From assembly GCA_964490725.1 (NCBI GenBank), contig CAZBDU010000014.1:8866-72865 (forward strand): DNA of 64,000 bases, written 5' to 3'. Positions 8,023 through 54,374 of the stretch are shown in pieces; the stretch's first letter is position 1; each line of letters opens with the position of its first letter. Made by a program: the position numbers and the translations under genes. The stretch is from an uncultured Spirochaetaceae bacterium (GTDB lineage: Bacteria > Spirochaetota > Spirochaetia > SZUA-6 > DRHE01). A model generated the notes under the pieces. The model made no database searches. It was given only the letters and a program-made list of their open reading frames with translations, and was not told where the DNA came from.

Positions 8023-8129
8023 CGGCGGTAATTCTTCGATTTGACACGATTTCAACAATCGTCAGCATGTTCTTTCATGAACCAGGAGCGCGCCTGTGCT
8101 TGTTCTCTACAGGGGCTCTCCCTGGACTG

Positions 8130-8825: not shown

Positions 8826-8849
8826 GAATCGGGACTCCTTCGTTTTCCT

Positions 8850-8871
8850 ATGATCTATGATCATAGATCAT
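8850..8871. promoter_or_regulatory. 22-bp perfect palindrome ATGATCTATGATCATAGATCAT in the divergent GntR/hydroxylase promoter region
   Basis: Read directly; the sequence equals its own reverse complement. A related half-site ATCATAGAT recurs at 8999-9007, just upstream of the 2Fe-2S subunit gene. Confidence 0.55.
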
Positions 8872-9023
8872 AATAGCAATATAAAGCATAGCGCGAATTG
8901 GGTCAAGCAGGAAAGAAAAGCAATTATACACCCAAGAAAGTCAGTGAAACGAGACATTCATGACTTGACAGAACGCCGATGATAATCAAAGATCAGTAAT
9001 CATAGATATGTCATCCTGGGGTC

Positions 9024-9557: not shown

Positions 9558-9754
9558 GCCTCTTGCATCCGGGAGGAAGAAAACGGGCAGAATTACAGGT
9601 CTGAGCGTCCCAACGGAGAATGGCGCAAGCGCCACCGCCTGGATTCCTGGTTTCTGCCTTTCCAGTGAAGGTTGCCCAGGCTGCGTCCGGACGGTGCAGG
9701 GCAGCGGCCATAATCGGTGAATGACAACGAATCAACTACATCGGAGGTTCTTAG

Positions 9755-10966: not shown

Positions 10967-11009
10967 GTTCTTTCAGGAGAAGATTCTTCGTTCGAACGCG
11001 AGGCAAGAG

Positions 11010-13259: not shown

Positions 13260-13441
13260 TGTATGTGTACTTCAATTCCCGAAGCGAAGCGGATTCTGCA
13301 GCAGTAATACAGACCAGGAGGAGGAATGGAATGAACAGGTCGCTGATCTTCGCATTCTCGGGGTGGTGAGGGCCTGCAAATGTGGGAACTTGCCTGGCGA
13401 CAAGTGGAGAAGTCGTACACTACAAAGACAAGGAGGAGACT

Positions 13442-14704: not shown

Positions 14705-14866
14705 TTGAGCGAACGGCATTCCTCGGAACGGCAATCGACCTCTTTCTGAGAGAGCTTCAAGGCGGGAGGATTCACCGGCATCCTGCCGTCCTCCCGCTTC
14801 ATTGGAGCTCATTCATGTTTGTCCCCTCGAGTTTCCAGACTTTCAGCATAGAAGGAGAAGGAAATA

Positions 14867-16792
14867 ATGTTTGAACACCTGTTCTCCCCGGCAAAGATTG
14901 GAAGCTTGGGAGTGCCCAACCGTCTTGTCGTACCGGCGATGGTACTCAATTACTGTCAGGAGGATGGCTTCCCGACCGAACGCTATCTGGAGTACCACGA
15001 GGCGAAAGCCAAGGGTGGCTGGGGATTGATAATCACTCAGGACTACGCCATCGAGCCGAAAGGAAAGGGCTACACCCACATTCCAGGGCTTTGGGCCGAC
15101 GAACAAATCGAGCCTCATTCCGAGCTTACCCGGAGGGTGCACAGATGCGGCGGGAGGATCGCCGCTCAGATCTATCACGCAGGAAGGCAGACGAATCACG
15201 AGATCATCGGAACCCAGCCGGTGGCGCCTTCACCGATCCCATGTCCGGCCAAGAAGGAGATGCCTCGCGAGCTTGCGATTCTTGAAATAGAGCGCCTGGT
15301 CGAGAGGTTCGGTGACTGTGCCCTGAGAGCAAAAAAGGCAGGATTCGACGCGCTGGAAATCCACGGCGGTCACGGTTATCTGATCGCTCAGTTCCTGTCC
15401 GCCTACTCTAACAAACGCGGAGACAAGTATGGGGGAAACCTCTACAATCGCGCCAGATTCGCACTGGAAGTCATTGCCGATGTCCGGGCCAAGGTGGGGG
15501 AGGACTTTCCATTGATCTTTCGTTTTTCCGGAGACGAGTACATCCCGGGCGGAAGAACCATTGAAGAGACCAAGGCGATTGCCATGATGCTGCAGGAAGC
15601 CGGCGTGGATGCTCTTCACATAACCGCAGGGGTGTACGGGAGCAGGCACACAATTGTACCTCCGGCTCGCATGGCCCACGGCGTGAATGTGCATCTTGCC
15701 GCTTCGGTAAAAGGCGCAGTCTCTGTGCCTGTCATCGCGGTTGGCTGGATCAACGATCCGTTCATAGCCGAGGCGATCGTCGCTTCCGGAGAGGCAGCCT
15801 TCGTGGCCATGGGGAGAGCCTCGTTGGCCGACCCCGAGTTGCCGAACAAGAGCCTGGCGCGCAGGTTCGAGGACATCATCTACTGCATCGGCTGTATGCA
15901 GGGATGTACGGAAAAGATCCGTAAACAAGGAGCTCCCGGCGGCTGCATGCTGAATCCTCGGACCGGCAGAGAGAAAGAGTACACGGTCACGCCTGCCGAG
16001 AAAAGAAAGAGAATATTCATCGCTGGCGGCGGCGTTGCCGGCATGGAAGCCGCCATCGTGGCGGCGCAGCGAGGGCACGAAGTTCACCTTTTTGAGAAAG
16101 AGGAGAAGCTCGGCGGGCAGTTTGCCCATGCAGCTGTTGCGCCAGGAAAAGGCGAGATCGGCAGCTTCATTGCCTGGCAGCAGACACAACTGGGCAAGCT
16201 GGGTGTATCCATTCATCTGGGATCAGAACTTGGTGTTGAAACCGTTCGATCGGGACACCCCGACGCAGTGATCGTGGCAACGGGCAGCAAGCCTGTGGTT
16301 TCTGAAATCCCTGGAGCCGATCTGCCCCATGTTGTCAACGCCGTGGATGTTCTTGCCGGCAAGGTCGCTGTCGGAGAACGGGTGGTTATTGTTGGCGGAG
16401 GGATGGTCGGGTCGGAGACCGCGAATCATCTGGCCAATCACGACAAGAGCGTCACAATTGTCGAGACCCAATCGGAGATCGCCACCGACGAAGAGACCAA
16501 CAGCAGAATACTTCTGCTGAAGGACCTGGAGGAGCGCAGGGTCAACGTCTTGACCGGCGTCTCCGTCAAGAAGTTCCTGAGAGACTATGTAATTGCGGAA
16601 AGGGAAGGAAACGAGCTCAGACTTGGACCAGCGGACAGCGTCGTCCTGGCGCTCGGCTCGAAATCCGACAACCAGGTGTTGAAGGAATTGGAAGGCAGAG
16701 TGCCCGTCCTTCGCTGCATCGGTGATGCTCTGGAGGTACGCAAAGCGCTGGAGGGTATCGAGGAAGGATACAAGGTGGCGCTGGAGATATAG
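14867..16792 (+). CDS. Old-yellow-enzyme family FMN/Fe-S/FAD oxidoreductase (2-enoate or 2,4-dienoyl-CoA reductase-like)
   Basis: OYE TIM-barrel N-terminus (VVPAMV..HGGHGYLIAQFLS), a CIGCMQGC Fe-S motif, and a C-terminal GGGVAGMEAA dinucleotide-binding domain. Confidence 0.85.
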   Translation: MFEHLFSPAKIGSLGVPNRLVVPAMVLNYCQEDGFPTERYLEYHEAKAKGGWGLIITQDYAIEPKGKGYTHIPGLWADEQIEPHSELTRRVHRCGGRIAAQIYHAGRQTNHEIIGTQPVAPSPIPCPAKKEMPRELAILEIERLVERFGDCALRAKKAGFDALEIHGGHGYLIAQFLSAYSNKRGDKYGGNLYNRARFALEVIADVRAKVGEDFPLIFRFSGDEYIPGGRTIEETKAIAMMLQEAGVDALHITAGVYGSRHTIVPPARMAHGVNVHLAASVKGAVSVPVIAVGWINDPFIAEAIVASGEAAFVAMGRASLADPELPNKSLARRFEDIIYCIGCMQGCTEKIRKQGAPGGCMLNPRTGREKEYTVTPAEKRKRIFIAGGGVAGMEAAIVAAQRGHEVHLFEKEEKLGGQFAHAAVAPGKGEIGSFIAWQQTQLGKLGVSIHLGSELGVETVRSGHPDAVIVATGSKPVVSEIPGADLPHVVNAVDVLAGKVAVGERVVIVGGGMVGSETANHLANHDKSVTIVETQSEIATDEETNSRILLLKDLEERRVNVLTGVSVKKFLRDYVIAEREGNELRLGPADSVVLALGSKSDNQVLKELEGRVPVLRCIGDALEVRKALEGIEEGYKVALEI

Positions 16793-18393: not shown

Positions 18394-18456
18394 TTGTCCT
18401 GTCGCTCCAGCGGCAGTATGTTCGTGACATCTGGTTGTACCCCAGGGGGGTGGGGT
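18394..18456 (+). promoter_or_regulatory. Promoter (TTGTCC-N17-TATGTT) plus operator copy S1 TACCCCAGGGGGGTGGGGT (18438-18456)
   Basis: Read directly. The operator lies 15 nt after the -10 box and 22 nt before ATG 18479. Confidence 0.65.
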
Positions 18457-18478: not shown

Positions 18479-19594
18479 ATGGCGGTCAAGGATCCCGTCT
18501 GCGGCATGGAGATGACTCCCGAAGAGGCGATCTCCGAGGCGGAACATCAGGGCACCACGTTCTACTTCTGCTCGGAGGGGTGCCGTGACAGGTTCATGAA
18601 CGAGCATCCCTTTGACCGGCCCCGCCGCCGGTACGAGCTGGTCATCATCGGCGGGGGCCCGGCGGGGCTCACCGCGGCGGTGTATGCCGCCACCATGAAA
18701 ATCGACACATTGCTGGTCACCCGGGACATCGGGGGGCAGGCGGTGGACAGCACGAAGATCAAGAACTACATGGGCTACGACTTCATCACCGGTCCGGAGC
18801 TCACGGCCAGGTTTCGCGATCAGCTCCTGCACTCGAACTACGTGGATCACCTGCTCGGAGAGGTCGAGGTGGTGGAAGAGGCAGAGGAGGGCGGCTTCAC
18901 CGTCACGACCTCGGCCCTGGTCTCCTTTCACGCCGCCTGCGTGATCGTCGCCACCGGAATGACCAGGCGAACCCTCGGCGTGGCCGGCGAGGAGAAGTTC
19001 CAACGGCGGGGAGTATTCTACGGGAACGTGCAGGACTACTCCTTCGTGGCCGGCCGGGACGCCGTGGTCATCGGGGGCGGCAACTCCGCCCTGCAGCTCG
19101 TGGAGGACCTGCACACGGTGGCCCGCCGCATCACGCTGCTTTCGGATTTCGACCTCACCGCGGACGCAGGCCCGGTAGAGCAGGTGCGCCGCTACCGCAA
19201 CCTCACCGTCCGAGAGAACGTCAAGGTGCTGGAAATCTCCGGAGGGGAGGTGGTGGAGGAAGTGTCCTTCCGGGCCAGGGGCACGGACCGGGAAGAGCGC
19301 GAGCCCGCGCGAGGCGTATTCATCGCCATCGGGCTCAAGCCCAGCTCCGGGGTGGTGTCGTCCCTGGTGAAGTGCAACGATCGCGGTGAGATCGAGATCG
19401 ACGCCGACTGCTCCACCTCCAGACCGGGGATCTTCGCCGCGGGAGACGTCAGTACGGCTTTCGGCAAGAGGATCATCATCGCCTCCGGCGAAGGGGCCAA
19501 GGCGGCCCTGGCCGCTCGCCGGCACATTCTGGCTTTGAGGAAGGCATCCCCAGGCAGCGCAGCGGTCCCGGCGGGCGGCAGGGATTCGGTGTAG
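18479..19594 (+). CDS. YHS/TRASH domain fused to a thioredoxin-reductase-like FAD/NAD(P) oxidoreductase lacking the redox CxxC
   Basis: N-terminus MAVKDPVCGMEMTPEEAISEAEHQGTTFYFCSEGCRDRF. Then VIIGGGPAGLTAAVYA, GGGNSALQ and GIFAAGDV. Where TrxR has CATC, this protein has VFYGNVQDY. Confidence 0.85.
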   Translation: MAVKDPVCGMEMTPEEAISEAEHQGTTFYFCSEGCRDRFMNEHPFDRPRRRYELVIIGGGPAGLTAAVYAATMKIDTLLVTRDIGGQAVDSTKIKNYMGYDFITGPELTARFRDQLLHSNYVDHLLGEVEVVEEAEEGGFTVTTSALVSFHAACVIVATGMTRRTLGVAGEEKFQRRGVFYGNVQDYSFVAGRDAVVIGGGNSALQLVEDLHTVARRITLLSDFDLTADAGPVEQVRRYRNLTVRENVKVLEISGGEVVEEVSFRARGTDREEREPARGVFIAIGLKPSSGVVSSLVKCNDRGEIEIDADCSTSRPGIFAAGDVSTAFGKRIIIASGEGAKAALAARRHILALRKASPGSAAVPAGGRDSV

Positions 19595-19664: not shown

Positions 19665-19725
19665 TTGACTTCCAGAACAAGCGGGTCTATATTTCTAATA
19701 AGGATACCCCACGGGGGTGGGGTAT
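19665..19725 (+). promoter_or_regulatory. Promoter (TTGACT-N17-TATATT) plus operator copy S2 ATACCCCACGGGGGTGGGGTAT (19704-19725)
   Basis: Read directly. The operator starts 10 nt after the -10 box; ATG is at 19756. Confidence 0.75.
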
Positions 19726-19755
19726 CGAACGAGGCGGCGTGAACGGAGGACGAGG

Positions 19756-20262
19756 ATGGCCGAAGAGACGGGGATCGTGCTGAGCTCCACCGGCGGGAAG
19801 GCGCGGATACGGCTGAATCGCAAGTCCGAGTGCAGCACCTGCGGCGGCTGCTTTTTCAGCAAGACCGAGCGTTTCATGGTCGCGGAAGTGGAAGACACCC
19901 TGGGCGTACAGCCGGGGGACAGCGTCATGATCGCCAACCGGACCAGCGCCACCAAGGCGGGGTTCCTGCTGTACGTGCTGCCTCTGTTCGTGCTGGTAGG
20001 GGGCTACGCCGCAGGGACGGCGGTTGCGGGCGCCCTGGGCGCCACCGGGACCGACGGCTGGGGAATAGCGGCCGGATTCGTGCTGATGGCGCTGGGGTAC
20101 TTCGTGCTCTACCGGGCCCAGAAGAGGGCCGCCCGCAGGGGACCGGGCCCCATGAGGCTCGTCCGTTTGGTGAGCGGGGCGGCTCAGCGGCGCCCAAACC
20201 GGGCAGAGGCGCCGGGGAAGAGAGGCCGCGGCGAAGCGCAGGCTTCCGAAGCGGGATCATGA
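19756..20262 (+). CDS. RseC/MucC-family (SoxR-reducing-system-like) membrane protein
   Basis: Cys cluster SECSTCGGC in the N-terminal beta domain followed by two TM helices (GFLLYVLPLFVLVGGYAAG, GIAAGFVLMALGYFVLY). Same architecture as E. coli RseC. Confidence 0.7.
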   Translation: MAEETGIVLSSTGGKARIRLNRKSECSTCGGCFFSKTERFMVAEVEDTLGVQPGDSVMIANRTSATKAGFLLYVLPLFVLVGGYAAGTAVAGALGATGTDGWGIAAGFVLMALGYFVLYRAQKRAARRGPGPMRLVRLVSGAAQRRPNRAEAPGKRGRGEAQASEAGS

Positions 20263-30634: not shown

Positions 30635-33043
30635 ATGGAAGCGATCCACTACCGCTTGCCCAGCGCGTACGTTGAAGAGATTGCGCGATTGGAGGAACGA
30701 ACGGAGGCGTTCCTGAAGGGGAACCTGAGCGCCGGGGAGCTCAAGTCCCAGCGCGTTCCCTTCGGAATCTACGAGCAGAGGAAGGGCGGAACGTTCATGG
30801 TTCGTGTCCGCTGCCCCGCCGGGATCGTCACCCCCCGGCAGCTCCTGCGCGTCTCCCGGCTGGCCGCCGCGCACGGGGGCGGCACGGTCCACCTCACCAC
30901 CCGCCAGGAGATTCAGATCCACGATCTTGCTCTTCCGGCAGCGGTCCGCGTGATTGGGGAGCTGGCGGTGGCCGGCCTTTCCACCCGGGGCGGAGGAGGC
31001 AACACCGTGCGGAACATCACCGCCTCCCCCGACGCCGGCATCTCGCGCGCCGAAGCGTTCGACGTGGCCCCCTATGCCGTGGAGCTCACCTCGCGGCTGA
31101 TCGAAGAGGAGGACTCCTGGCGTCTTCCCCGCAAGCTCAAGATCTCCTTTTCCGGCGGCGACGCCGACGATTGCTGGGCCGGCGTGGCGGACCTGGGGTT
31201 CCTGGCCCGGCTGCGAGAGGGAGAGAGGGGGTTCAAGGTCTTCATCGGCGGCGGGCTGGGCGCCCGGCCGGCACCCGCACGCGGGCTGTACGATTTCCTG
31301 GCGGATGGGGAGGTCTACAACGTCGTGCGGGCCGCCAGGAGCCTGTTCGCCCGCCACGGCGACCGCAGGAACCGGCACCGGGCGCGGCTGCGCTTCCTGT
31401 ACCAGCAGTTGGGGGAGGCGCGCTTCCGCGCTGCCTTCCAGGAGGAGCTTCAGCGCGTTCGCGCGCAGGGGGTGCCGCCCCTGGCACTCAGGGAAATAGA
31501 GAATCGCCCGGCCGGAAGGCCCCGGCGGAGCGGGGCGGCCGCGTCCTTCGGGGGCGGGTCCTCCGGCCGTGACTACGAGCGATGGCGCAGCCGCTACGTG
31601 TGCCCGCAGAAACAGGAGGGGCTGTTTGCCGTGCTCCTTCCCGCACCCCTGGGCTTGCTGGAGGCGCAACAGGTGGAACGGCTGGCCTCCTTCCTCAAGC
31701 CGAGGGGGGACAACGTGGTGCGCATCACCCGGGAGCAGAACCTGCTGCTCAGAAACTTCTTGGCGGAGGATCTTCCGGCGCTGTATCGATTCCTGCAGGG
31801 ATGCCTGGAGGTGGATCGGCCCCCCCTGCTGGCCAGGATGATCTCCTGCGCCGGAGCGGCCACCTGCCAGCTGGGGATCTGCAACTCCCGCGCCGCCATG
31901 GAGGCGATCGTGGCGCGTCTTCAAGGCTGCGGGGCCGAGCTGGACGCGGTGCAGGAGCCGGCGCCGATCTACATGTCGGGGTGCCCCAACTCATGCGGCC
32001 TGCACCACCTGGCCGCCCTGGGACTGTACGGCAAGGCGGGAAGGAGCGGCGACAGGCTGTATCCCGCCTACGTGGTGGTCTTGGGCGCCTGCACGGGAGC
32101 CGCAGGGACCGTGCTGGCGCAAAGGGCAGGAGAGGTAGCGGCCAGGGACGTTCCGGCGTTCGTGGAGGAGGTGATTCGGGACTACCTGTCGGTCGGCGCC
32201 GGTTACCGCAGCTTCGCCGACTATACGCGCGTAGCGGCCGGCCGCGTCCGGCGGATCCTCGAACGCTACGCCCGCTTTCCCGCCTTCCGGCAGGACCTGG
32301 CCTACTATGTCGACTGGGGGACCGAAGCGCCCTTCTCCCTCCAGGAGCGAGGCACGGGCGAGTGTTCCGCCGGCCTCCTGGATCTGATCGAGCTGGACGT
32401 CAAAGCCGTAGAGGCCGCGCTGGAGGAGCTGCGCAGCCGCCCGGAGCGGGCCGGGCACAGGGCCGAGCTGCTGCGTGCCCTGGTCTTCCACGCCTCGCGG
32501 ATGCTCATCCCCGCTCGGGGAGAGGAGGCACGGGACGGGCAGGAGGTCTTCGACGCCTTCATCCGGCACTTCATCGAGACCGGGCTGGTGAGCCGCAGAT
32601 TCCTGGACATCGTCGTGCCGGCCAGAAGAGGCATTCTGCCGGAGCTGGAGGAGCTGGAGAAGGAAGTTCAGGAGCTGGCCGAGCGGGTGCTTCTTCTCTA
32701 CCGGATCATGGACGACCACTTGCAGTTCCCGGAGCAGGAGCCGCAGGACGGGGAGGCTGGCGGGCCATTCGAGGGCGCCGCCGAGGTGCGGGGAAGGGAG
32801 GGAACGCCGGCCGCCGATGTATTCATGGATCTGAGAGGGGTGGCCTGTCCCATCAACTTCGTGAAGGTCAAGCTGCGGCTGGCGACGATGGCCAGGGGAG
32901 AGTCGCTGGAGGCGTGGCTGGATGACGGGGAACCGGTGCGGAACGTTCCCCGTTCGGCGGCAGAGGAGGGGCACGCGGTGCTGAGGACAAGCCGCGTAGG
33001 TCAGCACTGGAGCGTGGTCATCAGGAAGGAGCGCGAAGAATGA
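30635..33043 (+). CDS. Assimilatory-type siroheme/[4Fe-4S] sulfite reductase fused to a C-terminal TusA-like domain
   Basis: NIR_SIR repeats with SCAGAATCQLGIC and SGCPNSCG Cys clusters. C-terminus MDLRGVACPINFVKVKLRLATM...VIRKE is TusA-like. Confidence 0.85.
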   Translation: MEAIHYRLPSAYVEEIARLEERTEAFLKGNLSAGELKSQRVPFGIYEQRKGGTFMVRVRCPAGIVTPRQLLRVSRLAAAHGGGTVHLTTRQEIQIHDLALPAAVRVIGELAVAGLSTRGGGGNTVRNITASPDAGISRAEAFDVAPYAVELTSRLIEEEDSWRLPRKLKISFSGGDADDCWAGVADLGFLARLREGERGFKVFIGGGLGARPAPARGLYDFLADGEVYNVVRAARSLFARHGDRRNRHRARLRFLYQQLGEARFRAAFQEELQRVRAQGVPPLALREIENRPAGRPRRSGAAASFGGGSSGRDYERWRSRYVCPQKQEGLFAVLLPAPLGLLEAQQVERLASFLKPRGDNVVRITREQNLLLRNFLAEDLPALYRFLQGCLEVDRPPLLARMISCAGAATCQLGICNSRAAMEAIVARLQGCGAELDAVQEPAPIYMSGCPNSCGLHHLAALGLYGKAGRSGDRLYPAYVVVLGACTGAAGTVLAQRAGEVAARDVPAFVEEVIRDYLSVGAGYRSFADYTRVAAGRVRRILERYARFPAFRQDLAYYVDWGTEAPFSLQERGTGECSAGLLDLIELDVKAVEAALEELRSRPERAGHRAELLRALVFHASRMLIPARGEEARDGQEVFDAFIRHFIETGLVSRRFLDIVVPARRGILPELEELEKEVQELAERVLLLYRIMDDHLQFPEQEPQDGEAGGPFEGAAEVRGREGTPAADVFMDLRGVACPINFVKVKLRLATMARGESLEAWLDDGEPVRNVPRSAAEEGHAVLRTSRVGQHWSVVIRKEREE

Positions 33044-33116
33044 AGGAAATGCTGGATGCGTTTCGCGCCCGGCTCGAAGGCAGCGAGGCCCAGGAGGTCG
33101 TACGCTGGGCCGTACC

Positions 33117-33235
33117 TGGTCCCTCGTATACTCCGGTTTCGATCCAGAGCATGAGGATCTGCGCGAAGCGCTTTGCACGCTGGGCAACGGGTTTTTCGCC
33201 ACCAGGGGCGCGGCGCCGGAGTCGCGTGCCGCACC
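33117..33235 (+). pseudogene. N-terminal stub of a GH65-family (kojibiose/trehalose phosphorylase-like) gene
   Basis: WSLVYSGFDPEHEDLREALCTLGNGFFATRGAAPESRA matches, from memory, the conserved N-terminal box of actinobacterial GH65 proteins. There is no start codon and no gene body. Confidence 0.35.
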
Positions 33236-33237
33236 AG

Positions 33238-33600
33238 TCAGTCCAGGCTGCGCGTGGTCTCTTCTGATCGGTCGAAGCTCCGAACCGCCTCCCGAAGCGG
33301 CAGGCCAAGCTCCTCTTCCACCAGACGCCGAGCCTCCGCAAAGCCGAAGGGCGGGACGTGCTCCTGCAGCCTTGCCAGAGCCGCGACGTACCGGCGGGGA
33401 AGCACATCCGGGCGGGTGCTCAGGATCTGCCCGAGCTTGACGAAGCTGGACCCAGGCCCACCAGCTGAGGTACCAGCCGCCCGGGAATCGATGAAGCCGC
33501 CTGCCGCCGTTCGTCCAGCCGACGGAATTTCCTGAACGCCAGGGCCGCCCCGGCGAGCGCCTTCAGGACCCTCCACCTGGATATTCCGGCCGCGCTCATC
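33238..33600 (-). pseudogene. N-terminal stub of a UbiB/ABC1/AarF-kinase gene, frameshifted and truncated
   Basis: FVKLGQILSTRPDVLPRRYVAALARLQEHVPPFGFAEARRLVEEELG is the ABC1 signature. The upstream part (..RWRVLKALAGAALAFRKF..) lies in another frame. The ORF ends after about 110 aa where it meets the GH65 stub. Confidence 0.55.
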
Positions 33601-33651
33601 TCCGCCTTTCGCTCGCCCAGATCTTGCGCGGCTCCGACGGAGCCTTGCACG

Positions 33652-34992
33652 TTACCGTCCCGCCAGCGGCAGGCCCAGCATGAGGTGCTCCCGAATGCTG
33701 GCGAATCTGCGTACGATGCCGCTTGGGTCGGTCACCTCCGCATGAAAGCCCGTCCCGCCGATGCGGTCCAGGGCCTCCACGCCGGACCCATAGGCGACCG
33801 GCAGGTACTCCAGGACGCCGATACGCCGCAGGTGCGCCACCCGACGGAATAGCGCCTCCACGCCCGCAAGCCCATCGTAGCGGCATTCGATGCCCTGATT
33901 GTCCTCCCCGTCGCTCAGCACGATCAGGTACCACGCGGGGGTGCGGTTCTCCCGGACCAGGACTTGCAGATCGTCGAGGGCGCGCCACACCGCCCGGAAG
34001 ATCGCGGTAGAGCCGCCCGCTTCCAGAAGGTTCGCTGGACGCATCAGGGAGACTCTCGCCTCAGGGCTGTAGCCCTGGCGAAGGGAACCGTGGAGAACGG
34101 TCACGTTTTCGTTGAAAGCCCTGAGCCCTACCCGGAGCCGAGGGCCGACGGGGATGGTGCGCAGGAAGACGCGCAGGGCCTGTTTGGCGGCCTTCAGAGG
34201 GCCGCCCTCCATCGAGCCCGACACGTCGATGAGGAGGTATACCACCCGCGTATCGCGCTCCACCTCGATCTCCGGGGGAAGCACGGCAGGCTCGGATTCA
34301 TCCTGCCGGGAGGTCTGTTCCGGATCCGGGGGCCACAGGCGATCCAGAGTGGGCGCAAACGAAGCATCCAGGCCCCGCAGATGCCAGTCATAGCCGGCAT
34401 TCGCGCCGGCCGCCGGGCCTCGCCTGCCCAGGATGGCGTTGGTCATCTCCCCGCACAGCAGAGAGTCCGCCGTGGCGGAGAAGGCGCCGGTCATGAAGGG
34501 GCCGTGCAGCCCCAGCCGCTCCCTGACCATCCGACACTGGAACACCAGGTGAAGGCCCTTGCGGAGCTTGAAGCTGCGTCCCGCCAGCCGGATCTTGACG
34601 GTTTCGTTTACCAGGTACACCTCTCCGTGGGGACTGTTGTTCCAGTAGCGGCCCGTCTCTTCGATGAAAGCCTCCTCCACGAGGCGATCCAGAAGCGCCC
34701 GGAACTCCAGCTCCTCCTCGGTCCAGGGCCCCCTCCGCATCACCTCGGTTTCCAGGTCGAAGCGGAGGTCTTCCAGAGAACGGGGCGTACCGTCCACATG
34801 GGTGAACGCGCCCGCGCTGCAGTCCCGCACCGCCTGGGGCGCGGTAAACAGGAACGGCCCCCAGGGGTCGTAGCCGGAGGTGTCCCGCACCCTTACGACC
34901 GCTCGCCTGCCCCGCCGGCCGCCGGCCCGCTTGGGCGGGCGGGTGCCTGTGCGCCGTTCAACGCCGGTTCGTATGTCCGATATCATGCTCAT
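33652..34992 (-). CDS. Unknown N-terminal domain (paralogous to the upstream gene) fused to a C-terminal vWA domain
   Basis: GGAAGGAG SD. vWA MIDAS motif LLIDVSGSMEGGPL ... VLSDGEDN. The N-terminal roughly 115 aa align with the C-terminus of the 35011-36246 product. Confidence 0.8.
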   Translation of the reverse strand: MSMISDIRTGVERRTGTRPPKRAGGRRGRRAVVRVRDTSGYDPWGPFLFTAPQAVRDCSAGAFTHVDGTPRSLEDLRFDLETEVMRRGPWTEEELEFRALLDRLVEEAFIEETGRYWNNSPHGEVYLVNETVKIRLAGRSFKLRKGLHLVFQCRMVRERLGLHGPFMTGAFSATADSLLCGEMTNAILGRRGPAAGANAGYDWHLRGLDASFAPTLDRLWPPDPEQTSRQDESEPAVLPPEIEVERDTRVVYLLIDVSGSMEGGPLKAAKQALRVFLRTIPVGPRLRVGLRAFNENVTVLHGSLRQGYSPEARVSLMRPANLLEAGGSTAIFRAVWRALDDLQVLVRENRTPAWYLIVLSDGEDNQGIECRYDGLAGVEALFRRVAHLRRIGVLEYLPVAYGSGVEALDRIGGTGFHAEVTDPSGIVRRFASIREHLMLGLPLAGR

Positions 34993-35010
34993 CGTCTATC
35001 TCCTTCCCGT

Positions 35011-36246
35011 CTACGCCGACCGCTCGGCCGGACCCCTCACGGGCTTGAAGCCCCGGCCCAGCATGGCGTTGGACATGGCTCCGCACAGGAGGGTGACTCG
35101 CTTGGAGTCGAAGTTGTCCACCAGAACGGGACCCTCCAGGCCGGCCAGGTCGCGGAGCATCGGACAGGCCCAGACGATGTCCTGCCCGCGCCGAAACCGG
35201 TACGACCTGCCGCCCACCCGCATCCGCCCGCTGCTCAAGGCCTTGAACACCGGCGGGTGAGGGCTGATGTTCCAGAACGAAGCCATCCGGTGCAGCACCC
35301 CCTGGGACTCGAGCTCCTGCACCGCCTGGAGGTACTCCAGGTCCGCGGGCTGCCAGGGCCTGCCGCGCATCACCTCGTAACGGATGTCGCGCTCCAGATC
35401 CTGGAGCCGCCCCTCCCGTTCGTAGCGGGCCCTGGCGACCGGGTCGGTCATCAGGAAGGCGTCCACCGGGTCCGGCTCTCCCTCGTCCCGGGCCAGTGAG
35501 CCGGTAACCCCCGGCCGGACGAGCTCCTGGGCGATCAGGATCCACAGGCGGAATATCCCCCTGTGCAGCTCCGCCCCCCACAGACGCTCCTCCGCGGTCA
35601 CGGAGGCCGGGCTGCGGCTGTAATCGGCCGCCAGAGCCACCGCGACGCTCGACCTGGCGCGCAGTCTGGCGCGCAGCCTGGGGAGGTTCCCTCTTTCCTC
35701 CCCGCCCAGGCGGAGGTCCAGCTCGAAGGTCTCCTCCAGTCTCTGGCAGGCCGCCTGGAGGCTGTCCAGAGGCTCGGCCAGAAACGCGTCGCTCACCAGC
35801 TCATGGGGGTCCAGCGGGTGCGGCTGCATAGGGTGGGCCATCTCGATGCGGGCCTGCTCCAGGAGCTGGAAGAGCTCGTGGTAGAGCCCGGCGGCCAGCC
35901 GCGCCCGGCGTTCGCTCCGGCGCACCACCCGCCTCCCGTGGCGCCCGGCGACGCGGATGCCCGCCGTCCGGGCAGGCGCCGCGATAGTCAAGAGGCCGAA
36001 AGTGTCGGCCAGAGCTCTCACGACGCCGGCTGCCGCCAGGCAGAGTGCCGCCTGCACGGAGCGGTCCTCCGCCGGGACGGCCTGGAGCTCCCCCCTGACC
36101 ACGTTCAGCTCGCATGCGAGCTCCCGGTAGGCTTCCAGCCTGGCCCTCGCCGCCTGACCCGCCTCTTGCGCACCGCCGGCGTGAGCGCGCGCCATGCTTG
36201 CCAGCCATTCACTGAACCTCGCGATCAGTCGCTGAAGCGCGGTCAT
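35011..36246 (-). CDS. Hypothetical protein: helical N-terminal half plus the same unknown Cys/Met-containing domain
   Basis: GGAGGGG SD before ATG 36246. C-terminus DIRYEVMRGRPWQPADLEYL..FWNISPH..GGRSYRFRRG..WACPMLRD..LLCGAMSNAMLG aligns with DLETEVMRRGPWTEEELEF..YWNNSPH..AGRSFKLRKG..FQCRMVRE..LLCGEMTNAILG in the next gene. Confidence 0.7.
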   Translation of the reverse strand: MTALQRLIARFSEWLASMARAHAGGAQEAGQAARARLEAYRELACELNVVRGELQAVPAEDRSVQAALCLAAAGVVRALADTFGLLTIAAPARTAGIRVAGRHGRRVVRRSERRARLAAGLYHELFQLLEQARIEMAHPMQPHPLDPHELVSDAFLAEPLDSLQAACQRLEETFELDLRLGGEERGNLPRLRARLRARSSVAVALAADYSRSPASVTAEERLWGAELHRGIFRLWILIAQELVRPGVTGSLARDEGEPDPVDAFLMTDPVARARYEREGRLQDLERDIRYEVMRGRPWQPADLEYLQAVQELESQGVLHRMASFWNISPHPPVFKALSSGRMRVGGRSYRFRRGQDIVWACPMLRDLAGLEGPVLVDNFDSKRVTLLCGAMSNAMLGRGFKPVRGPAERSA

Positions 36247-36319
36247 GTTGCGTCCCCTCCGGTCCTCCCGGGCCGGCACTCGCACGGTTCGTGCCAGGAG
36301 AGTCTCTCGAGCAGGCAGG

Positions 36320-36384
36320 ACACCCCACCGGGGAGGGGTATCGTACCTTTCTACAAACATAACTGCGGAACGGTCGGTTGTCAA
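36320..36384 (-). promoter_or_regulatory. Promoter (TTGACA-N17-TATGTT) plus operator copy S3 (minus-strand ATACCCCTCCCCGGTGGGGTGT, 36341-36320)
   Basis: Read directly on the reverse strand: -35 at 36384-36379 and -10 at 36361-36356. The operator lies 14 nt downstream and ATG 36246 lies 73 nt further. Confidence 0.7.
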
Positions 36385-36513
36385 GACCAGCGCTGACGAG
36401 GATCGTACAGCGCCGTCAACCAGCCGTAGCAGAAGGCGGGAATATACTTGTCACGCTTGTTGTCCCTCGTCTTCACCCCCCGGCCCTTGCCCGGCTCGGA
36501 GCGTCAGGGCGAG

Positions 36514-36582
36514 TACCCTACCCCCCAGGGGTGCACTTTGGGTCCACCTTGATTGTATAACACACGGCAGAGGAAACTGCAA
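36514..36582 (-). promoter_or_regulatory. Second upstream promoter-like element (TTGCAG-N17-TATACA) plus operator copy S4 (minus-strand CACCCCTGGGGGGTAGGGTA, 36533-36514)
   Basis: Read directly. The site sits about 190 bp upstream of S3, in the gap after the copA stop. Confidence 0.5.
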
Positions 36583-36700
36583 GAGCAGGATAGCCAGCGA
36601 GGCGAGGAAGCAGGGTTTCTCTTCCGCCTGGGAAATCGCCGCGGAGCCCCCTGCCTCTAGACAGCTCGCCCAGCGGCAGGCGTTGCCGCGGCAGTCTCCG

Positions 36701-39673
36701 TCAGCCCGTGTACCTCGCTGGTTCGCTCTGGAAGCGCTCCCGGCATGTCTCGGAACAGAAGGAGTAAGTCTTGCCGGCGTGCTCGATCCGAGCTGCCGCC
36801 GCGGCGGGGTCGATGGTCATGCCGCAGACCGGGTCCTGGACCCCGTTGTCTCCTGCCCGAACCCGGTGCTGGCCTTCGCTCACCTCCACGCGCACCTCCG
36901 TCTCCGCGGCGACGCTCCTCCTGGCTTCGGGAAGGCTGGAACTGCGGTACCGGCGCAGGCGGTTGGCGTTCATCACTACCGACAGCGAGCTGGCCGCCAT
37001 GGCGGCCGCGGCGATCATGGGGCTCAGCAGGATGCCGAACAGCGGGTAGAGGACGCCCGCGGCGATGGGGATGCCGATGGAGTTGTAGGCAAAGGCGAAG
37101 AACAGGTTCTGGCGAATGTTGCGCATGGTCGAGCGGCTGAGCGTGAAGGCCGTGACCACCCCTTCCAGCTCTCCGGAGATCAGCGTGATGTCCGAGGACT
37201 CGATGGCAACGTCCGTTCCGGTGCCGATGGCCAGCCCTACGTCGGCCTGCGCCAGGGCAGGGGCGTCGTTGATCCCGTCGCCAACCATGGCGACGAGCTT
37301 TCCCTCCCCCTGCAGCCTTCTCACCTCGAGGGCCTTGTCCTCCGGCAGCACCTCGGCCAGCACTCGGGTGATCCCCACCTGCCGGGCAATGGCCTCGGCG
37401 GTGCGGCGGTTGTCACCCGTGATCATCACCGCCTCCAGCCCCAGCATCCGGAGCGCCCGGATGGCCGCCGCGGAGTCCTCCTTCACGGTGTCGGCCACGG
37501 CAACGACGCCGGCGGCTCTTCCGTCCACGGCGACGAACATCGGCGTCTTGCCTTCCCCGGCCAGCCGGTCCGCCTCGGCTTCCAGGCCGCCGGCCTCCAC
37601 GCCGGCATCCGCAAGAAGCCTGCTGTTTCCCACCAACACCTGGCGGCCGTCTACCGCCACGCTGATCCCCTTTCCGGTGATGGACTGGAAGTCCTTCGGC
37701 TCGGCCAGCGGCAGGCCCTGCGCCTCCGCCGCCTCGATGATCGCCTGCCCGAGGGGATGCTCGGACGTCCGTTCCGCGGAGGCTACCAGTCGCAGAAGCT
37801 GTTCCCGGTCCAGGCCGTTCTGCGCCACGATCACGTCTGTCAGGGCGGGTTTGCCCCGGGTGATGGTTCCCGTCTTGTCCAGGACCAGGGTGCGCAGCTT
37901 GTGAGCCGTCTCCAGGGCCTCGGCCGAGCGGATCAGGATGCCGCTCTGCGCCCCCTTGCCGGTGGCCACCATGATGGACAGAGGCGTGGCCAGCCCCAGG
38001 GCGCAGGGGCAGGCGATGATGAGCACTGACACCGCGCTTACCAGGGCGAAGGTGAAGGCCGGCTGCGGGCCGAATACGAACCAGACCACGAAGGCGGCGA
38101 TGGCGATGAACATCACGGCGGGCACGAAGTAGCTGGAGACCAAATCCGCCAGGCGCTGGATGGGCGCCTTGGAGCTCTGCGCCTCCTCCACCAGGCGGAT
38201 GATCTGGGCCAGCATCGTGTCCCTGCCGATCCGGGTGGCCCGGTAGCGGAAGGAGCCAGTCCCGTTGATGGTGGCGCCGATCACCGTGTCCCCTTCGCCC
38301 TTGCGCACGGGGATGCTCTCGCCGGTGACCATGGACTCGTCGACCGTCGAGCTCCCCTCCAGGATCTCGCCGTCTATGGGCACCTTCTCTCCGGGGCGCA
38401 CCAGCACCACGTCTCCCACTTGCACCTCTTCCAGGGGGATGTCCTGCTCCTGGCCGCCGCGAACCACCCGGGCGGTCTTGGCCTGCAGCCCGATCAGCTT
38501 GCGGATGGCCTCTCCGGTGCCTCCCTTGGCGATGGCCTCCAGGAGACGTCCCAGGAGGATGAGCGTGATGATCACCCCCACCGCCTCGTAGTAGACGTGC
38601 TGCAGCCTCTCCGGCAGGATCCCCGGCGCCACCGTTGCCACCAGGCTGTAGGTGAAGGCGGCCAGGCTCCCCACGGTGATGAGGCTGTTCATGTCCGCGC
38701 TGCGGTGGGCCAGGGTGAGCCAGCCGGTGCGGTGGATCGGCCAGCCGCTGAACAGCAGCACCGGCACGATCAGGGCAAGCTGTACCCACCGGTTGAGAAG
38801 GATCGGTGGAACCAGCCTCCCGCCGCCGAAGTCGCCTACCATCACGGCATAGAGAACCGGCAGGGTGAGGACGGCGGCGACGACGAAGCGGCGGGTCAGG
38901 TCGCGCCGCTCCGCCCGGCGATCGTCGGCCTCCCGGTCCTCGGTCTCCGCGCTTCCCGGCCGCTCCCGCTCCCGGATCCGGTATCCGGCCCGGTCGACGG
39001 CCTCCCGCATCTGGTCCACCGAGACCTGCCCCGGATCGTAGTCCACCGTGACCCGCTCTGCCCCGAAGTTCACGCGGGCTCCCTGGACTCCCGGAAGCTC
39101 GTTCAGGAACCCTTCGATGTTGACCGCGCAGGTGGGGCAAGTGACTCCCCCGCCGGCGATGGCGAACTCCACCGTCTCCGGTTTGGCGGTTTCCAGGTGC
39201 GGTCCGACGCCCACTGCCTGGGCGTAGCTGGATTTGCCGTCGCCCGCGCCCGACGGCCCTTCCTGTGCGGTGGTCTCCACGCGCGAGGTCTGCCCGGAAT
39301 CCTCTTCGACGATCAGCGATCCGTGCAGCATGTTCATCCCGCAGGCGAAGGCGAAGACGCCCGTCCGGTCGGGAACGAGCTCCACCGGCGTAACCTGGAA
39401 TGGCGCCAGGTTCTTGCCGACCTTGAAGTCGGGAAAGACGATCCGCGACGAGCAGTCGCTCGCCTCCTGGCGATCGATCAACAGGCGGAGTGGAACCCCC
39501 TTCCGCACCCGGATGGTGTCAGGGGTGTATCCTCCCTTTACGGTCATACGGATTTCCTGGACTCCGCCCTTGACCTGGGCCTGGCTGGCCCTCTTGGGAC
39601 CGAAGAAAAACCAGGAAAGCAGGGCGACGATCAGGGCGCTCCCTGTCACGACCAAGATTTCTGCAACTCCCAT
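36701..39673 (-). CDS. copA: Cu(I)-translocating P1B-1 ATPase CopA with an N-terminal TM anchor, cupredoxin-like domain, HMA domain and C-terminal YHS/TRASH domain
   Basis: GGAAGGAGG SD. HMA domain ([10 protein letters not shown]), then [38 protein letters not shown] and MAASS. C-terminus [35 protein letters not shown]. Confidence 0.95.
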
Positions 39674-39729: not shown

Positions 39730-39790
39730 ATACCCGACCCCCTAATGGTAATTGTGGATAGAATTTAGTGAAAGAGCCGCGGCGAGGCAA
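39730..39790 (-). promoter_or_regulatory. copA promoter candidate (TTGCCT-N17-TAAATT) plus degenerate operator copy S8 (minus-strand TACCATTAGGGGGTCGGGTAT, 39750-39730)
   Basis: Read directly. The site matches about 16 of 21 positions of the consensus from the other copies. The region is locally AT-rich. Confidence 0.45.
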
Positions 39791-39973: not shown

Positions 39974-40258
39974 GTGAATGGATTCGTCGCAGCCCATGGT
40001 GATCCAGAGATTCAGCAGCTGCAGCCCATGCTGGAGCGCATCTGGCGGAGCAAGCAGGAGTTCTCCCAGGGCTCGGGCTCGGCGGATCCGCTGATCCCCT
40101 ATTTCGAAACCCGGATCTCCGACGGAGAGCTGGTAGGGGCTCGCGCCGAGTTCCTTCAGATTGGCAGCGAGGAGGAGCTTTACTACCTCAACATCTTCAC
40201 GGACCATTTCGGCAAGGGAGGGGCCGTGGACACCGTGGGTCAGTGGATCTCCCTGTAG
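39974..40258 (+). CDS. Hypothetical protein (94 aa)
   Basis: GC at third codon positions is clearly higher for this frame than for the overlapping 39896-40366 minus-strand ORF. I do not recognise a family. GTG start. Confidence 0.4.
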   Translation: MNGFVAAHGDPEIQQLQPMLERIWRSKQEFSQGSGSADPLIPYFETRISDGELVGARAEFLQIGSEEELYYLNIFTDHFGKGGAVDTVGQWISL

Positions 40259-40333: not shown

Positions 40334-40389
40334 TTGACACTTTTCAGGAACTGGACTAAGCTGCATTCCATACCCCAGGGGGGTAGGGT
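40334..40389 (+). promoter_or_regulatory. Promoter (TTGACA-N17-TAAGCT) plus operator copy S5 TACCCCAGGGGGGTAGGGT (40371-40389)
   Basis: Read directly. The operator starts 8 nt after the -10 box. Confidence 0.7.
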
Positions 40390-40448
40390 CAAAATCGCGT
40401 CGCCGCTGAAGCCGGTGTGGGCGAATGTACGTCGAGGAGGGACATGCA

Positions 40449-41441
40449 ATGGAACGCTACAGGCCGGCGTTGGTCGGCCTCTTGGGGGCCTTCGGGCTCC
40501 TGGCAGTCTACTTTCTGGTCCTGATCCTGGCGGAGTCCGCGGAGCACGCGCTGGAGCAGCTCGCGCAGCTCGGGTTTTGGATCACCCTCCTGGCCGCAGG
40601 GTTCGGCCTGCAGCTGGGGCTGTACGCCTTCGTCCGCGGCCGGCTGCGGCGGCGCCGCGCTACGGCGGAGGTGGCGGCCACCGGCGGCCTGTCCACCGGC
40701 GCCATGATCGCCTGCTGCGCGCACCACCTGGTGGATGTGCTGCCCGTCCTGGGGCTGACCGCGGCGGCGATCTTTCTGACGCGCTACCAGCTGGGATTCC
40801 TCGTGCTGGGAGTAGGGGCCAACCTGCTCGGGGTCGTGGTGATGCTGGGGATCATTCAGCGCCACGGGCTGTACCAGCCGGGAGGCTGGCTGCGCGGGCT
40901 GTTCAGTTTCGACATGCGGCGCCTGCGCAACCTCACCGCCGTTCTGGCCTCCGTGGCGGTGGCGGTCACGTTCCTGCTGGTGAGCGAGCAGGCCGGGGCA
41001 GCCGGCAGCAGCCGGCGGGGGTCGCTGGCTGTGCGCCCGGAGCCTCTTGCCCAGGGCGGGGCCGGTTCGGGCGTTGCGGACGCTGTCTCGCAGGAGGGCG
41101 TCGCGGCGGCCAGGACGCTGGAGGCGCAGGTGGACGGGCGCAACTTCGTCTCCGTGGCGGTGCAGCCGGTGGAGTTCCGGCGCGACGGGCCGGTGACCTT
41201 CGCGGTAAGCCTCAACACCCACCAGGGGGACCTGGGCTTCGACGTGGCCGAGATCGCGTTTCTGGAGGACGACCTGGGCAACCGGTACCTCCCGACGGGC
41301 TGGGACGGCTCCCCGCCCGGAGGACATCACAGGAGGGGGACGCTGCGCTTCCCTTCGCTGGCGCCGGACGCCGGCTTAGTGCGGCTGACCCTCAGGAACA
41401 TCTACCAGATCCCGGAGCGCGTGTTTGAATGGAAGCTTTGA
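40449..41441 (+). CDS. Membrane protein with an intramembrane CCAHH motif and a C-terminal extracytoplasmic domain with a GGHHR motif
   Basis: GAGGAGGG SD. Four predicted TM helices, the third reading GGLSTGAMIACCAHHLVDVLPVLG. Soluble C-terminus ..VSLNTHQGDLGFDVAEIAFLEDDLGNRYLPTGWDGSPPGGHHRRGTLRFP. Confidence 0.7.
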   Translation: MERYRPALVGLLGAFGLLAVYFLVLILAESAEHALEQLAQLGFWITLLAAGFGLQLGLYAFVRGRLRRRRATAEVAATGGLSTGAMIACCAHHLVDVLPVLGLTAAAIFLTRYQLGFLVLGVGANLLGVVVMLGIIQRHGLYQPGGWLRGLFSFDMRRLRNLTAVLASVAVAVTFLLVSEQAGAAGSSRRGSLAVRPEPLAQGGAGSGVADAVSQEGVAAARTLEAQVDGRNFVSVAVQPVEFRRDGPVTFAVSLNTHQGDLGFDVAEIAFLEDDLGNRYLPTGWDGSPPGGHHRRGTLRFPSLAPDAGLVRLTLRNIYQIPERVFEWKL

Positions 41442-51725: not shown

Positions 51726-51977
51726 CTACTCCGCCACCTTGCGGACGAAGATGCTCCAGGCCGAGGGCGCCTGCTGGCGGACCGCCAGCACCTGCTGGCC
51801 GGCCAGCTTCAGGCTGTGAGGCACGTTTTCCACGGCCGTCGCGTTGTCCACGGTGATCTTCAGCACCTGGCCGATCTGCATCTCCTCCAGGGTGATGCGG
51901 CTCTTGACGAACGTGTAAGGGCAGACCTCACCCCTGAGATCCAGGTCGAAGTCTGCCACGATCTGCTCTTCCGCCAT
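51726..51977 (-). CDS. TusA/SirA-family sulfurtransferase (copy 2)
   Basis: LDLRGEVCPYTFVKSRITLEEM. Confidence 0.8.
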   Translation of the reverse strand: MAEEQIVADFDLDLRGEVCPYTFVKSRITLEEMQIGQVLKITVDNATAVENVPHSLKLAGQQVLAVRQQAPSAWSIFVRKVAE

Positions 51978-52016
51978 TCGCTCTTTCCTCCCTGTTCCGG
52001 CGAACCGGCGCGAGTC

Positions 52017-52838
52017 TCACGGGCAGGCCGCCTTTCCCCCCTGCCCGCAGGCCGCGGGTTGCTCCACGTCGGCTATCTCCCTCATCGTGGGCCGCTCGCC
52101 GCACGCCGGGCAGTCCGGGTCGCGGGGCACCGCCACGCAGGTGTAATCCATCGTCAGGGCGTCCACGAACAGCATCCTGTCCACCAGAAGCTCGCCGATG
52201 CCCAGCAGGTACTTGAGCGCCTCCGCCGCCTGGATCGTACCCAGCATTCCGGCCACGGCGCCCAGCACGCCCGCTTCCGCGCAGCTTGGCACCGATCCGG
52301 CCGGGGGCGGGGTCTGGCAGACGCAGCGGTAGCAGGCGCTGCCGGGCACGTGGGTCATGGTCTGCCCGCAGTAGCGCAGGATGCCGGCCAGGGAGAAGGG
52401 CTTTCCCAGGAGCACGCAGGCGTCGCTGATCAGGAACTTGGCGGGGAAGTTGTCCGTACCTTCCACCACGAAGTCGTAGTCCCGGAGGATGCCCGCAATG
52501 TTGGCCGCGGTGAGCCGGCCGGGATGCGTTCTCACCGCCACCTCCGGGTTGAGCTGGCGCAGCTTGGCCCTGGCGGAGTCTACCTTGAAGGCGCCCACGT
52601 CCGGGGTGAAGTGCAGGATCTGGCGCTGCAGGTTGCTCAGGTCCACCGTGTCGCCGTCTGCGATCCCCAGGGTTCCCACCCCTGCGGCGGCCAGGTAGTA
52701 GGCGGCAGGCGAGCCCAGCCCGCCGGCGCCTGCCACCAGGACCCGGGACTGCTGCAGTCTCCTCTGCCCTTTTCCGCCGACGTCGGGCAGCAGGATGTGC
52801 CGGCTGTAGCGGACGATCTGCTCTTCCGTGAAACCCAA
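52017..52838 (-). CDS. ThiF/MoeB-family E1-like adenylyltransferase (copy 2; close paralog of 25806-26645)
   Basis: (M)GFTEEQIVRYSRHILLPDVGGKGQRRL..GAGGLGSP..CYRC..CPACG. I chose TTG 52838 because GGAG lies 7 nt upstream and the N-terminus then matches the paralog. Confidence 0.9.
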   Translation of the reverse strand: MGFTEEQIVRYSRHILLPDVGGKGQRRLQQSRVLVAGAGGLGSPAAYYLAAAGVGTLGIADGDTVDLSNLQRQILHFTPDVGAFKVDSARAKLRQLNPEVAVRTHPGRLTAANIAGILRDYDFVVEGTDNFPAKFLISDACVLLGKPFSLAGILRYCGQTMTHVPGSACYRCVCQTPPPAGSVPSCAEAGVLGAVAGMLGTIQAAEALKYLLGIGELLVDRMLFVDALTMDYTCVAVPRDPDCPACGERPTMREIADVEQPAACGQGGKAACP

Positions 52839-52854
52839 GGCCACGCTCCAAGTC

Positions 52855-52874
52855 TACCCCAGGGGGGTGGGGTA
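52855..52874 (-). promoter_or_regulatory. Operator copy S6 TACCCCAGGGGGGTGGGGTA, 17 nt upstream of the thiF-2 start
   Basis: Read directly. It matches the plus-strand consensus exactly, so it is inverted relative to the gene it precedes. I found no clear -35/-10 pair upstream. Confidence 0.6.
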
Positions 52875-54204: not shown

Positions 54205-54260
54205 TTGACTGACCGTGCGCGGCGGCAGTATACTCAAGATACCCCAGGGGGGTGGGGTGT
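54205..54260 (+). promoter_or_regulatory. Promoter (TTGACT-N18-TATACT) plus operator copy S7 ATACCCCAGGGGGGTGGGGTGT (54239-54260)
   Basis: Read directly. The operator starts 4 nt after the -10 box. Confidence 0.75.
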
Positions 54261-54374
54261 TCAAGAGGGCGGTCCCGGATTTTCGGGTCCCCTGGTCTGC
54301 GGCCGTCCTCCATGGTGTCGTGGACCCGCTGCCGCCCGGGCGGGACCGGAGCGGGGGCGGACAGGGAGGCGCAC

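Follow-up and report, generated by a model that had tools for sequence, protein, structure and literature searches.

Cytoplasmic copper handling in bacteria is usually accounted for by a few components, namely the CopA pump, the CopZ chaperone, a sensor and, in some species, storage proteins. In copZA-type efflux operons, CsoR is the Cu(I) sensor, CopA is a P1B-1 ATPase and CopZ is the chaperone. Here we analyzed a pair of adjacent genes, A and B, in a 64-kb stretch of DNA (the window) from an uncultured Spirochaetaceae bacterium, together with the domain, called D, that is common to the two products. An earlier reading of the window from its letters alone (the sequence-only reading) had singled out the pair as an operon of unplaced function. 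For comparison, D-containing loci were collected from species-representative genomes (29 loci), from metagenomes (36 loci) and by exact-protein look-ups (several loci), and are labelled L followed by a number. The genome scan was queried with an alignment of D1 only, D1 being the copy of the domain in A and D2 the copy in B, and the fetched loci were scanned with local hidden Markov models (HMMs).

The A-B operon resembles the CsoR-regulated copZA-type operons in several respects. It has a GC-rich pseudo-palindromic box just past a sigma-70 promoter, it is located beside copA, its relatives in other genomes are found beside csoR genes with the x-C-H-C signature, and its products are probably cytoplasmic. 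Unlike the copZA-type operons, it encodes two large proteins with a new common domain, and the regulator gene is located outside the window. Neither A nor B matched HMA, the domain of CopZ, at E-values up to 1; the MxCxxC motif is absent, and the motifs present are C-x-M and C-x-x-M, not CxxC. The regulation matches that of CsoR-controlled copper efflux, and the two-protein module itself is novel. The D domain, the obligate D1/D2 pairing and the link to copper islands appear not to have been described before: literature searches returned nothing on any of the three, and nothing relevant on CsoR in combination with vWA or von Willebrand.

Three other groups of described proteins share single traits with A and B. 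In CupA/CopA from Streptococcus pneumoniae, the cupredoxin-like Cu(I) chaperone domain at the N-terminus has a site composed of a Cys plus CxMxM. Like this cytoplasm-facing protein, A and B have a mixed Cys/Met pattern and belong to a copper-resistance operon, whereas D occurs as a paralogue pair and has a different predicted topology, with three helices ahead of a beta-meander. Cupredoxin_1 matched neither A nor B, although the neighbouring CopA has such a domain. Proteins with a von Willebrand factor A (vWA) domain and a metal-ion-dependent adhesion site (MIDAS), such as TerY, CoxE, BatA/B and the C-termini of ChlD/CobT, are comparable to B, which has a canonical vWA domain with a full MIDAS; TerY belongs to the Ter stress cluster, and the N-terminal domain of long B orthologues weakly resembles TerB. 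However, the partners of the MoxR-vWA and TerY-P systems (AAA+ MoxR, PP2C and kinase) do not flank A-B in the window, L001, L015 or L016, a kinase occurs solely in another lineage, fused to D1, and the vWA domain is dispensable. Effector-associated and Death-like adaptors of bacterial conflict systems also place one domain on the products of two adjacent genes, and in our case the common domain is found at the C-terminus of A and near the N-terminus of B. Unlike those adaptors, A-B has no NTPase or effector, its context is metal homeostasis, and the two copies are fixed and distinct paralogues. Among defence and phage resources, PADLOC contained no family for A or B, and PHROGs gave only E-values above 0.04.

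A domain common to two adjacent products

Alignment of A with B by BLASTP gave 36% identity over 163 columns (E=6e-27), in which residues 254–407 of A correspond to residues 37–194 of B. This confirmed the shared region proposed in the sequence-only reading, but not its extent: a length of about 115 residues and a position at the extreme N-terminus of B had been given, whereas D is about 148 residues long and starts around residue 45 of B. The blocks that had been listed as conserved (EVMR..PW, WN.SPH, GRS[YF], C[PR]M.R and LCG.M.NA..G) are all present and are kept in 16 homologues. Both cysteines were found close to a methionine, as had been noted, in the arrangements C-x-M and C-x-x-M.

No match to D was obtained in Pfam, NCBIfam, PADLOC or PHROGs, and a profile of the D alignment searched against PDB sequences gave nothing below E=1. 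In a Foldseek search of the PDB, the best E-value for the AlphaFold2 (AF2) model of A was 0.54, and the model of B matched vWA structures only. The earlier statement that the domain cannot be placed in a known family thus agrees with every one of these searches, nor did any confident match to a non-metal family emerge from them. The topology predicted by AF2 starts with three helices, which are followed by a beta-meander of five strands, then by a short helix and a single further strand; the C-terminal helix contains the last motif. The mean predicted local distance difference test score (pLDDT) was 81.6 for A and 75 for B; within B, D2 was modelled with values of 73–93 over residues 30–172 and the LCGEM motif at low confidence. 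The domain is rare. A search of 1.84 billion cluster representatives with the D profile returned 65 proteins, and A and B have 8 relatives each among 5.8 billion protein clusters.

Two adjacent D genes on the same strand were observed in every locus with room for both. The gene for D1 (WACPM type) precedes the gene for D2 (FQC[RQ]M type) in 56 of 56 loci, and the reverse order was never seen. The domains joined to D1 and D2 differ between lineages. D1 is joined to a helical bundle in the A-type proteins, to a small N-terminal zinc ribbon in Chloroflexota and to a Ser/Thr kinase in a kinase variant (L007 and L041), and D2 is joined to vWA in the B-type proteins and to a weak TerB-like domain plus vWA in the long B forms. 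The N-terminal extension of the long forms matched TerB (PF05099)/DUF533 in four of six members with E-values from 1e-4 to 1e-2, which is below the curated cut-off, and its best PDB match, 2ou3, was weak (E=0.05); B of the window lacks this extension. The D pairs of Chloroflexota have no vWA domain, and the smallest system consists of two D proteins of about 170–200 residues each. The variability of the accessory domains and the existence of the minimal two-protein form argue that the D1:D2 pair is the core, and that the helical and vWA parts are lineage-specific additions. By this reasoning the pair is the functional core, and D1 and D2 are old paralogues. The presence of a copy of D on both adjacent products implies that A and B dock through this domain, and they probably form a heteromer.

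A divergent third D subfamily (L031, 8933–9679; L060, 8872–9564; and the protein P0053) sometimes adjoins a D1-D2 pair. In P0053 the divergent D is joined to YHS (E=4e-15). An apparent D1-D2 fusion in L073 was rejected, as its two halves come from a scaffold join and meet at two Ns.

The remaining parts of A and B were also compared with known families. The helical bundle of A has no match in Pfam, NCBIfam, PADLOC or PHROGs, and the Foldseek value given above for A is the best obtained for it. For B, the vWA/MIDAS domain recognized in the sequence-only reading was confirmed by scores above the curated Pfam cut-offs, both for VWA (PF00092; E=7e-7, 30 bits, cut-off 23.8) and for VWA_2 (28 versus 27). 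Foldseek matched the model of B to vWA domains and integrin I-domains with E-values down to 6e-10 and target TM-scores up to 0.75. The MIDAS pattern DxSxS...T...D, represented by DVSGSM, GGSTA and SDGED, is kept in all 8 B homologues. The N-terminal tail of B is rich in Arg.

A and B are arranged head to tail on the minus strand with a gap of 18 nt, in which neither a promoter nor a terminator was found. The ATG of A at 36246 is preceded by GGAGGGG and agrees with the N-termini of the aligned homologues, and the ATG of B has a GGAG 7 nt before it. A longer form of A with a TTG start (35011–36384) was rejected because its reading frame would run through, and so overlap, the promoter of A itself. 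The short gap, a separate Shine-Dalgarno sequence for each gene, the lack of internal signals and the pairing kept in all homologous loci support the two-gene operon as originally claimed. An Rfam scan of 33100–36800 gave nothing relevant.

Promoter, operator boxes and copper genes

The operon has its own promoter, as had been proposed, which was the only match of the promoter scan within 33200–36800 and is followed by operator S3 (Table 1). The underlying 18-mer, ACCCCAGGGGGGTGGGGT, is a GC-rich 5-3-5 inverted repeat that is present in seven copies in the window at up to three mismatches, against 0.23 copies expected by chance. We assign it to CsoR from its likeness to published CsoR operators and from its context. 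The same layout of promoter and box was observed upstream of the A homologues in L002, L010, L015 and L016, which brings the number of lineages with a CsoR-type box before the A-B operon to five. In L015 and L016, copA has a separate promoter and box, and the copA gene of the window is preceded by a box-like site, TACCATTAGGGGGTCGGGTA (39731–39750), after the promoter-like element TTGCCT-N17-TAAATT. The five further box copies in the window (Table 1) mark a predicted wider regulon.

The second operator, S4, was confirmed as a copy of the box, at the distance that had been described, and in inverted orientation it agrees with the box at 40372–40389 in 17/18 positions (repeat I20). However, TTGCAG-N17-TATACA, the promoter-like element reported next to S4, is weak and does not pass the promoter scan. 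The view of an operon guarded by two copies is correct in that S3 and S4 are the only boxes in the window at most 200 bp apart, but whether S4 guards this operon is uncertain. S4 may serve A-B, either as part of a second promoter-operator further upstream or as a second site that acts cooperatively, or it may be what is left of the control region of a gene since lost. In L002, two boxes were found 270 bp apart, one of which abuts a divergent gene.

A lineage represented by L003, L004 and L006 has another arrangement upstream of the A homologue (at about 240–290 in L003), in which TTGATT-N17-TATGCT is followed by the palindrome TGTAGAGACCATACA. This suggests that a different regulator may act in this lineage.

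The gene neighbourhoods were counted in a first set of 35 loci, which comprises L001–L040 plus the window, was obtained by the genome-collection scan and protein look-ups, and has a D pair in about 34 loci. A P1B ATPase gene was present in 16 of these loci, an ABC ATPase-YHS fusion in 11 and csoR in 7. The metagenome set added 8 loci with a P1B ATPase and 2 with csoR, giving a total of 9 csoR loci. In many loci, the D pair is located within a few hundred bp of the P1B ATPase, csoR or YHS-ABC genes and on the same strand. Cu-type P1B ATPases, csoR and YHS-ABC exporters were found beside D pairs in Chloroflexota and Spirochaetota as well as in the window. The gene order in L001 is copA-csoR-A-B, and the CsoR of this locus has the x-C-H-C signature; csoR is also close to the D pair in L019, L025, L032, L034, L043 and L053. 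Overall, 5 of the 7 CsoR proteins in the first set have x-C-H-C, which a recent review (PMC11672702) names as the signature of the Cu(I) sensor, as distinct from the x-C-N-C of the persulfide sensor CstR. Co-occurrence with copA or csoR, which the sequence-only reading had put forward as a check, is thus strongly confirmed across phyla, and the A-B operon very probably belongs to a copper-responsive regulon.

Candidate ligands and competing explanations

Residue conservation was counted over 97 distinct D sequences. The first Cys is present in 84 sequences and the Met two residues after it in 83, and the second Cys is present in 92 and the Met three residues after it in 83. Conservation of the Cys and Met positions in homologues, on which the proposed soft-ligand pattern depended, was thus upheld. 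The exceptions constitute one divergent subfamily, in which the first Cys and its Met are swapped jointly, to Pro and Leu. The His of SPH is present in 66 sequences and replaced by Phe in 30. Among 49 non-redundant pairs, the residues at this position in D1 and D2 were His and Phe in 26, Phe and His in 13, and His and His in 10. No pair with Phe in both was observed, against about 6.9 expected if the two positions were independent (Fisher p=4e-6, uncorrected for phylogeny). One His per pair thus always survives, which is the pattern to be expected if a pseudo-symmetric heterodimer has a composite site.

Taken as a whole, we give about an even chance to the explanation that A and B are two subunits of a copper-induced, cytoplasmic heteromeric complex in which D1:D2 binds Cu(I). 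A CsoR-family repressor, encoded outside the window, would keep A-B off until Cu(I) rises, and its release by Cu(I) would allow A and B to be made together. D1 and D2 would then form a pseudo-symmetric heterodimer, and the Cys thiolates, the Met thioethers and the surviving His, at or near the interface, would bind Cu(I). In this form the metal would be buffered, sensed or handed over in the cytoplasm, alongside the CopA pump. As add-on scaffolds of this lineage, the long helical bundle in A and the vWA domain with its MIDAS in B would oligomerise the complex or dock it to a partner. The step of direct Cu(I) binding by D1:D2 is suggested by the residue patterns, and its chances seem to us a shade under even. 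More tentatively, D1:D2 may represent a new fold and a heterodimeric Cu(I)-binding input module, that is, a cytoplasmic sensor or buffer. With the same reserve, the outputs wired to such a module may be as varied as a vWA scaffold, a Ser/Thr kinase, a zinc ribbon, a TerB-like domain and YHS.

Several observations weigh against this explanation. With regard to the ligands, the SPH His is not universal, the statistic for its pairing takes no account of phylogeny, and the C-terminal LCGxM helix of D has low AF2 model confidence. In the divergent subfamily, Leu or Ile takes the place of Met, and these positions could therefore be simply hydrophobic. With regard to the context, about half of the adequately flanked loci have no copA, csoR or YHS gene, and two 20-kb loci (L023 and L039) contain no copper gene. 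The kinase-D1 variant in L041 is located among sulfur-metabolism genes (Prismane and a Cys/Met pyridoxal phosphate (PLP) enzyme). The A-B operons of the L003 type (L003, L004 and L006) lack a CsoR-type box, and no csoR was found in the 64-kb window by tblastn with three CsoR/RcnR queries or with an HMM built from nine CsoR proteins.

The Met replacements, the highly variable accessory domains with their Ser/Thr kinase fusions, the use of vWA as a classic interaction module and an obligate pairing that resembles the logic of homotypic adaptors would also suit a non-metal adaptor or regulatory scaffold. Such a D1:D2 pair would control or assemble CopA or the YHS-ABC exporter, or relay to the kinase or vWA domain, and its Cys and Met would be structural. 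We consider this rather unlikely. Two Cys and two Met are strictly conserved from phylum to phylum in D1 as well as in D2, the divergent subfamily loses Cys and Met jointly, and the His residues are compensatory between the partners; these patterns suit a set of ligands better than a hydrophobic core, and no Pfam adaptor family, whether effector-associated or Death-like, matches. It is less likely still that the D cysteines are redox- or persulfide-reactive and that the module answers the thiol or reactive-sulfur stress accompanying copper stress, without binding copper. Sulfur genes do occur near D pairs: the window encodes NIR_SIR-TusA, ThiS and a Cys/Met PLP enzyme, L008 has DsrE/DsrH, and L041 has the genes mentioned above. 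TlpA-like redoxins and flavoprotein oxidoreductases are repeated neighbours, and CstR, the persulfide sensor, is itself a member of the CsoR family. However, the adjacent CsoR proteins mostly have x-C-H-C and not the x-C-N-C of CstR, the boxes are located before copA-type and YHS genes, and a Met beside each Cys is unexpected in a dithiol switch.

The predicted order of three helices, beta-hairpin and meander, the Arg-rich tail of B and the zinc ribbon of the Chloroflexota D1 proteins might point to a winged-helix-like nucleic-acid binder, in which case A and B would regulate the copper island at the level of transcription or RNA. This is improbable, given that no helix-turn-helix family in Pfam or the PDB and no Foldseek structure matched the D region, and that islands already encoding CsoR hardly need two more regulators. 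Even less credit is due to the idea that A-B has nothing to do with copper and came to lie beside copA by chance as mobile cargo, for instance as a defence or conflict system. The family is very rare, gene remnants are found on both sides of A-B (an UbiB-like pseudogene downstream and a 31-codon open reading frame (ORF) upstream), and a transposase gene is close to the D pair in L002. On the other hand, PADLOC and PHROGs gave no match, the GC content of A-B equals that of its flanks, the CsoR-type box is kept in five lineages, and linkage to copA or csoR is repeated in several phyla.

Flanking features and significance

The coordinates of the locus and of the box copies are given in Table 1.

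Table 1. Positions in the window of genes A and B, their domains, the control elements and the box copies
Feature	Position	Strand	Description
Gene A	35011..36246	-	ORF, 411 aa; N-terminal all-helical domain and C-terminal D1
Gene B	33652..34992	-	ORF, 446 aa; basic N-terminal tail, D2, linker and MIDAS vWA domain
Helical domain of A	35518..36246	-	A residues 1-243; predicted bundle of seven long helices; AF2 pLDDT mostly >90
D1 domain, WACPM type	35047..35490	-	A residues 253-400; SPH, C-P-M, LCGAM; from pairwise and multiple alignments
D2 domain, FQCRM type	34417..34860	-	B residues 45-192; SPH, C-R-M, LCGEM; from alignments
vWA domain	33673..34260	-	Complete MIDAS (DVSGSM ... GGSTA ... SDGED); from Pfam, Foldseek and alignment
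A-B promoter	36384-36356	-	TTGACA-N17-TATGTT; 10/12 positions match the sigma-70 pattern
Operator S3, CsoR-type box	36322-36339		ACCCCACCGGGGAGGGGT (plus strand); 16 nt downstream of the -10 hexamer
Operator S4, second box	36515-36532		ACCCCTGGGGGGTAGGGT (minus strand); 193 bp upstream of S3
31-codon ORF	36381..36476	-	VKTRDNKRDKYIPAFCYGWLTALYDPRQRWS; between S4 and the A promoter; read from sequence
copA	36701..39673	-	P1B ATPase; directly upstream of A-B, same strand; Cupredoxin_1, HMA and YHS (Pfam)
Box copy	18439-18456		Before a YHS and pyridine-nucleotide-disulfide-oxidoreductase fusion gene (18479-19594)
Box copy	19706-19723		Before an RseC/MucC-like gene (19717-20262)
Box copy	40372-40389		Before a membrane-protein gene (40425-41441, weak Cation_efflux match)
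Box copy	52856-52873		Before an unannotated ORF, 51928-52851 (-)
Box copy	54241-54258		Before an FtsX/MacB permease gene (54252-55484)

The CopA protein of the window has three different metal-binding modules: Cupredoxin_1 at the N-terminus (Cys...CGMNM), which is CupA-like, HMA, and YHS at the C-terminus. The interval from copA to the box at 40372 contains an ORF of 94 residues without a Pfam match (39974–40258), on the plus strand and so opposite to copA.

The 31-codon ORF runs into the promoter of A, its stop codon falling within the -35 hexamer. The ORF is possibly the 5' remnant of a lost gene that was once under the control of S4, and its product may be the N-terminus of a methyltransferase. 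Directly downstream of B, a UbiB/ABC1-kinase-like pseudogene (33238–33650, minus strand) is frameshifted and truncated, with the motif ...LGP/SFVKLGQILSTRPDVLP... divided between two frames. Neither this fragment nor the 31-codon ORF has a counterpart in any of the fetched loci. Elsewhere in the window, the region 8001–16000 has a GC content of 0.52–0.57, compared to about 0.68 in the rest, and may mark a foreign island.

A sulfite/nitrite reductase (NIR_SIR) fused to a C-terminal TusA sulfurtransferase domain is encoded at 30635–33043 on the plus strand, with genes for a Cys/Met PLP enzyme and a ThiS-like protein nearby. A gene for a protein resembling FAD-dependent oxidoreductases, of about 340–400 residues and with a weak DAO match, was observed beside D pairs and copA in Spirochaetota and Chloroflexota (L015, L016, L019, L024, L025, L030, L032, L034, L035, L037 and L040). 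Genes for a TlpA-like redoxin and for Lgt are also repeated neighbours of D pairs.

The A-B operon and its relatives constitute a conserved two-protein module, with a fold without known match, that forms part of copper-resistance operons in three or more phyla, and many of the D-pair loci come from metal-rich hydrothermal or sulfidic samples. A and B look soluble, and both the candidate ligands and the operator sites have been defined, which makes the proposal directly testable. If D1:D2 binds or senses Cu(I), it would represent a new class of chaperone, buffer or sensor, and would account for unannotated genes in many copper islands. The module would then be an unrecognised part of bacterial copper homeostasis in Chloroflexota, Spirochaetota and other phyla.

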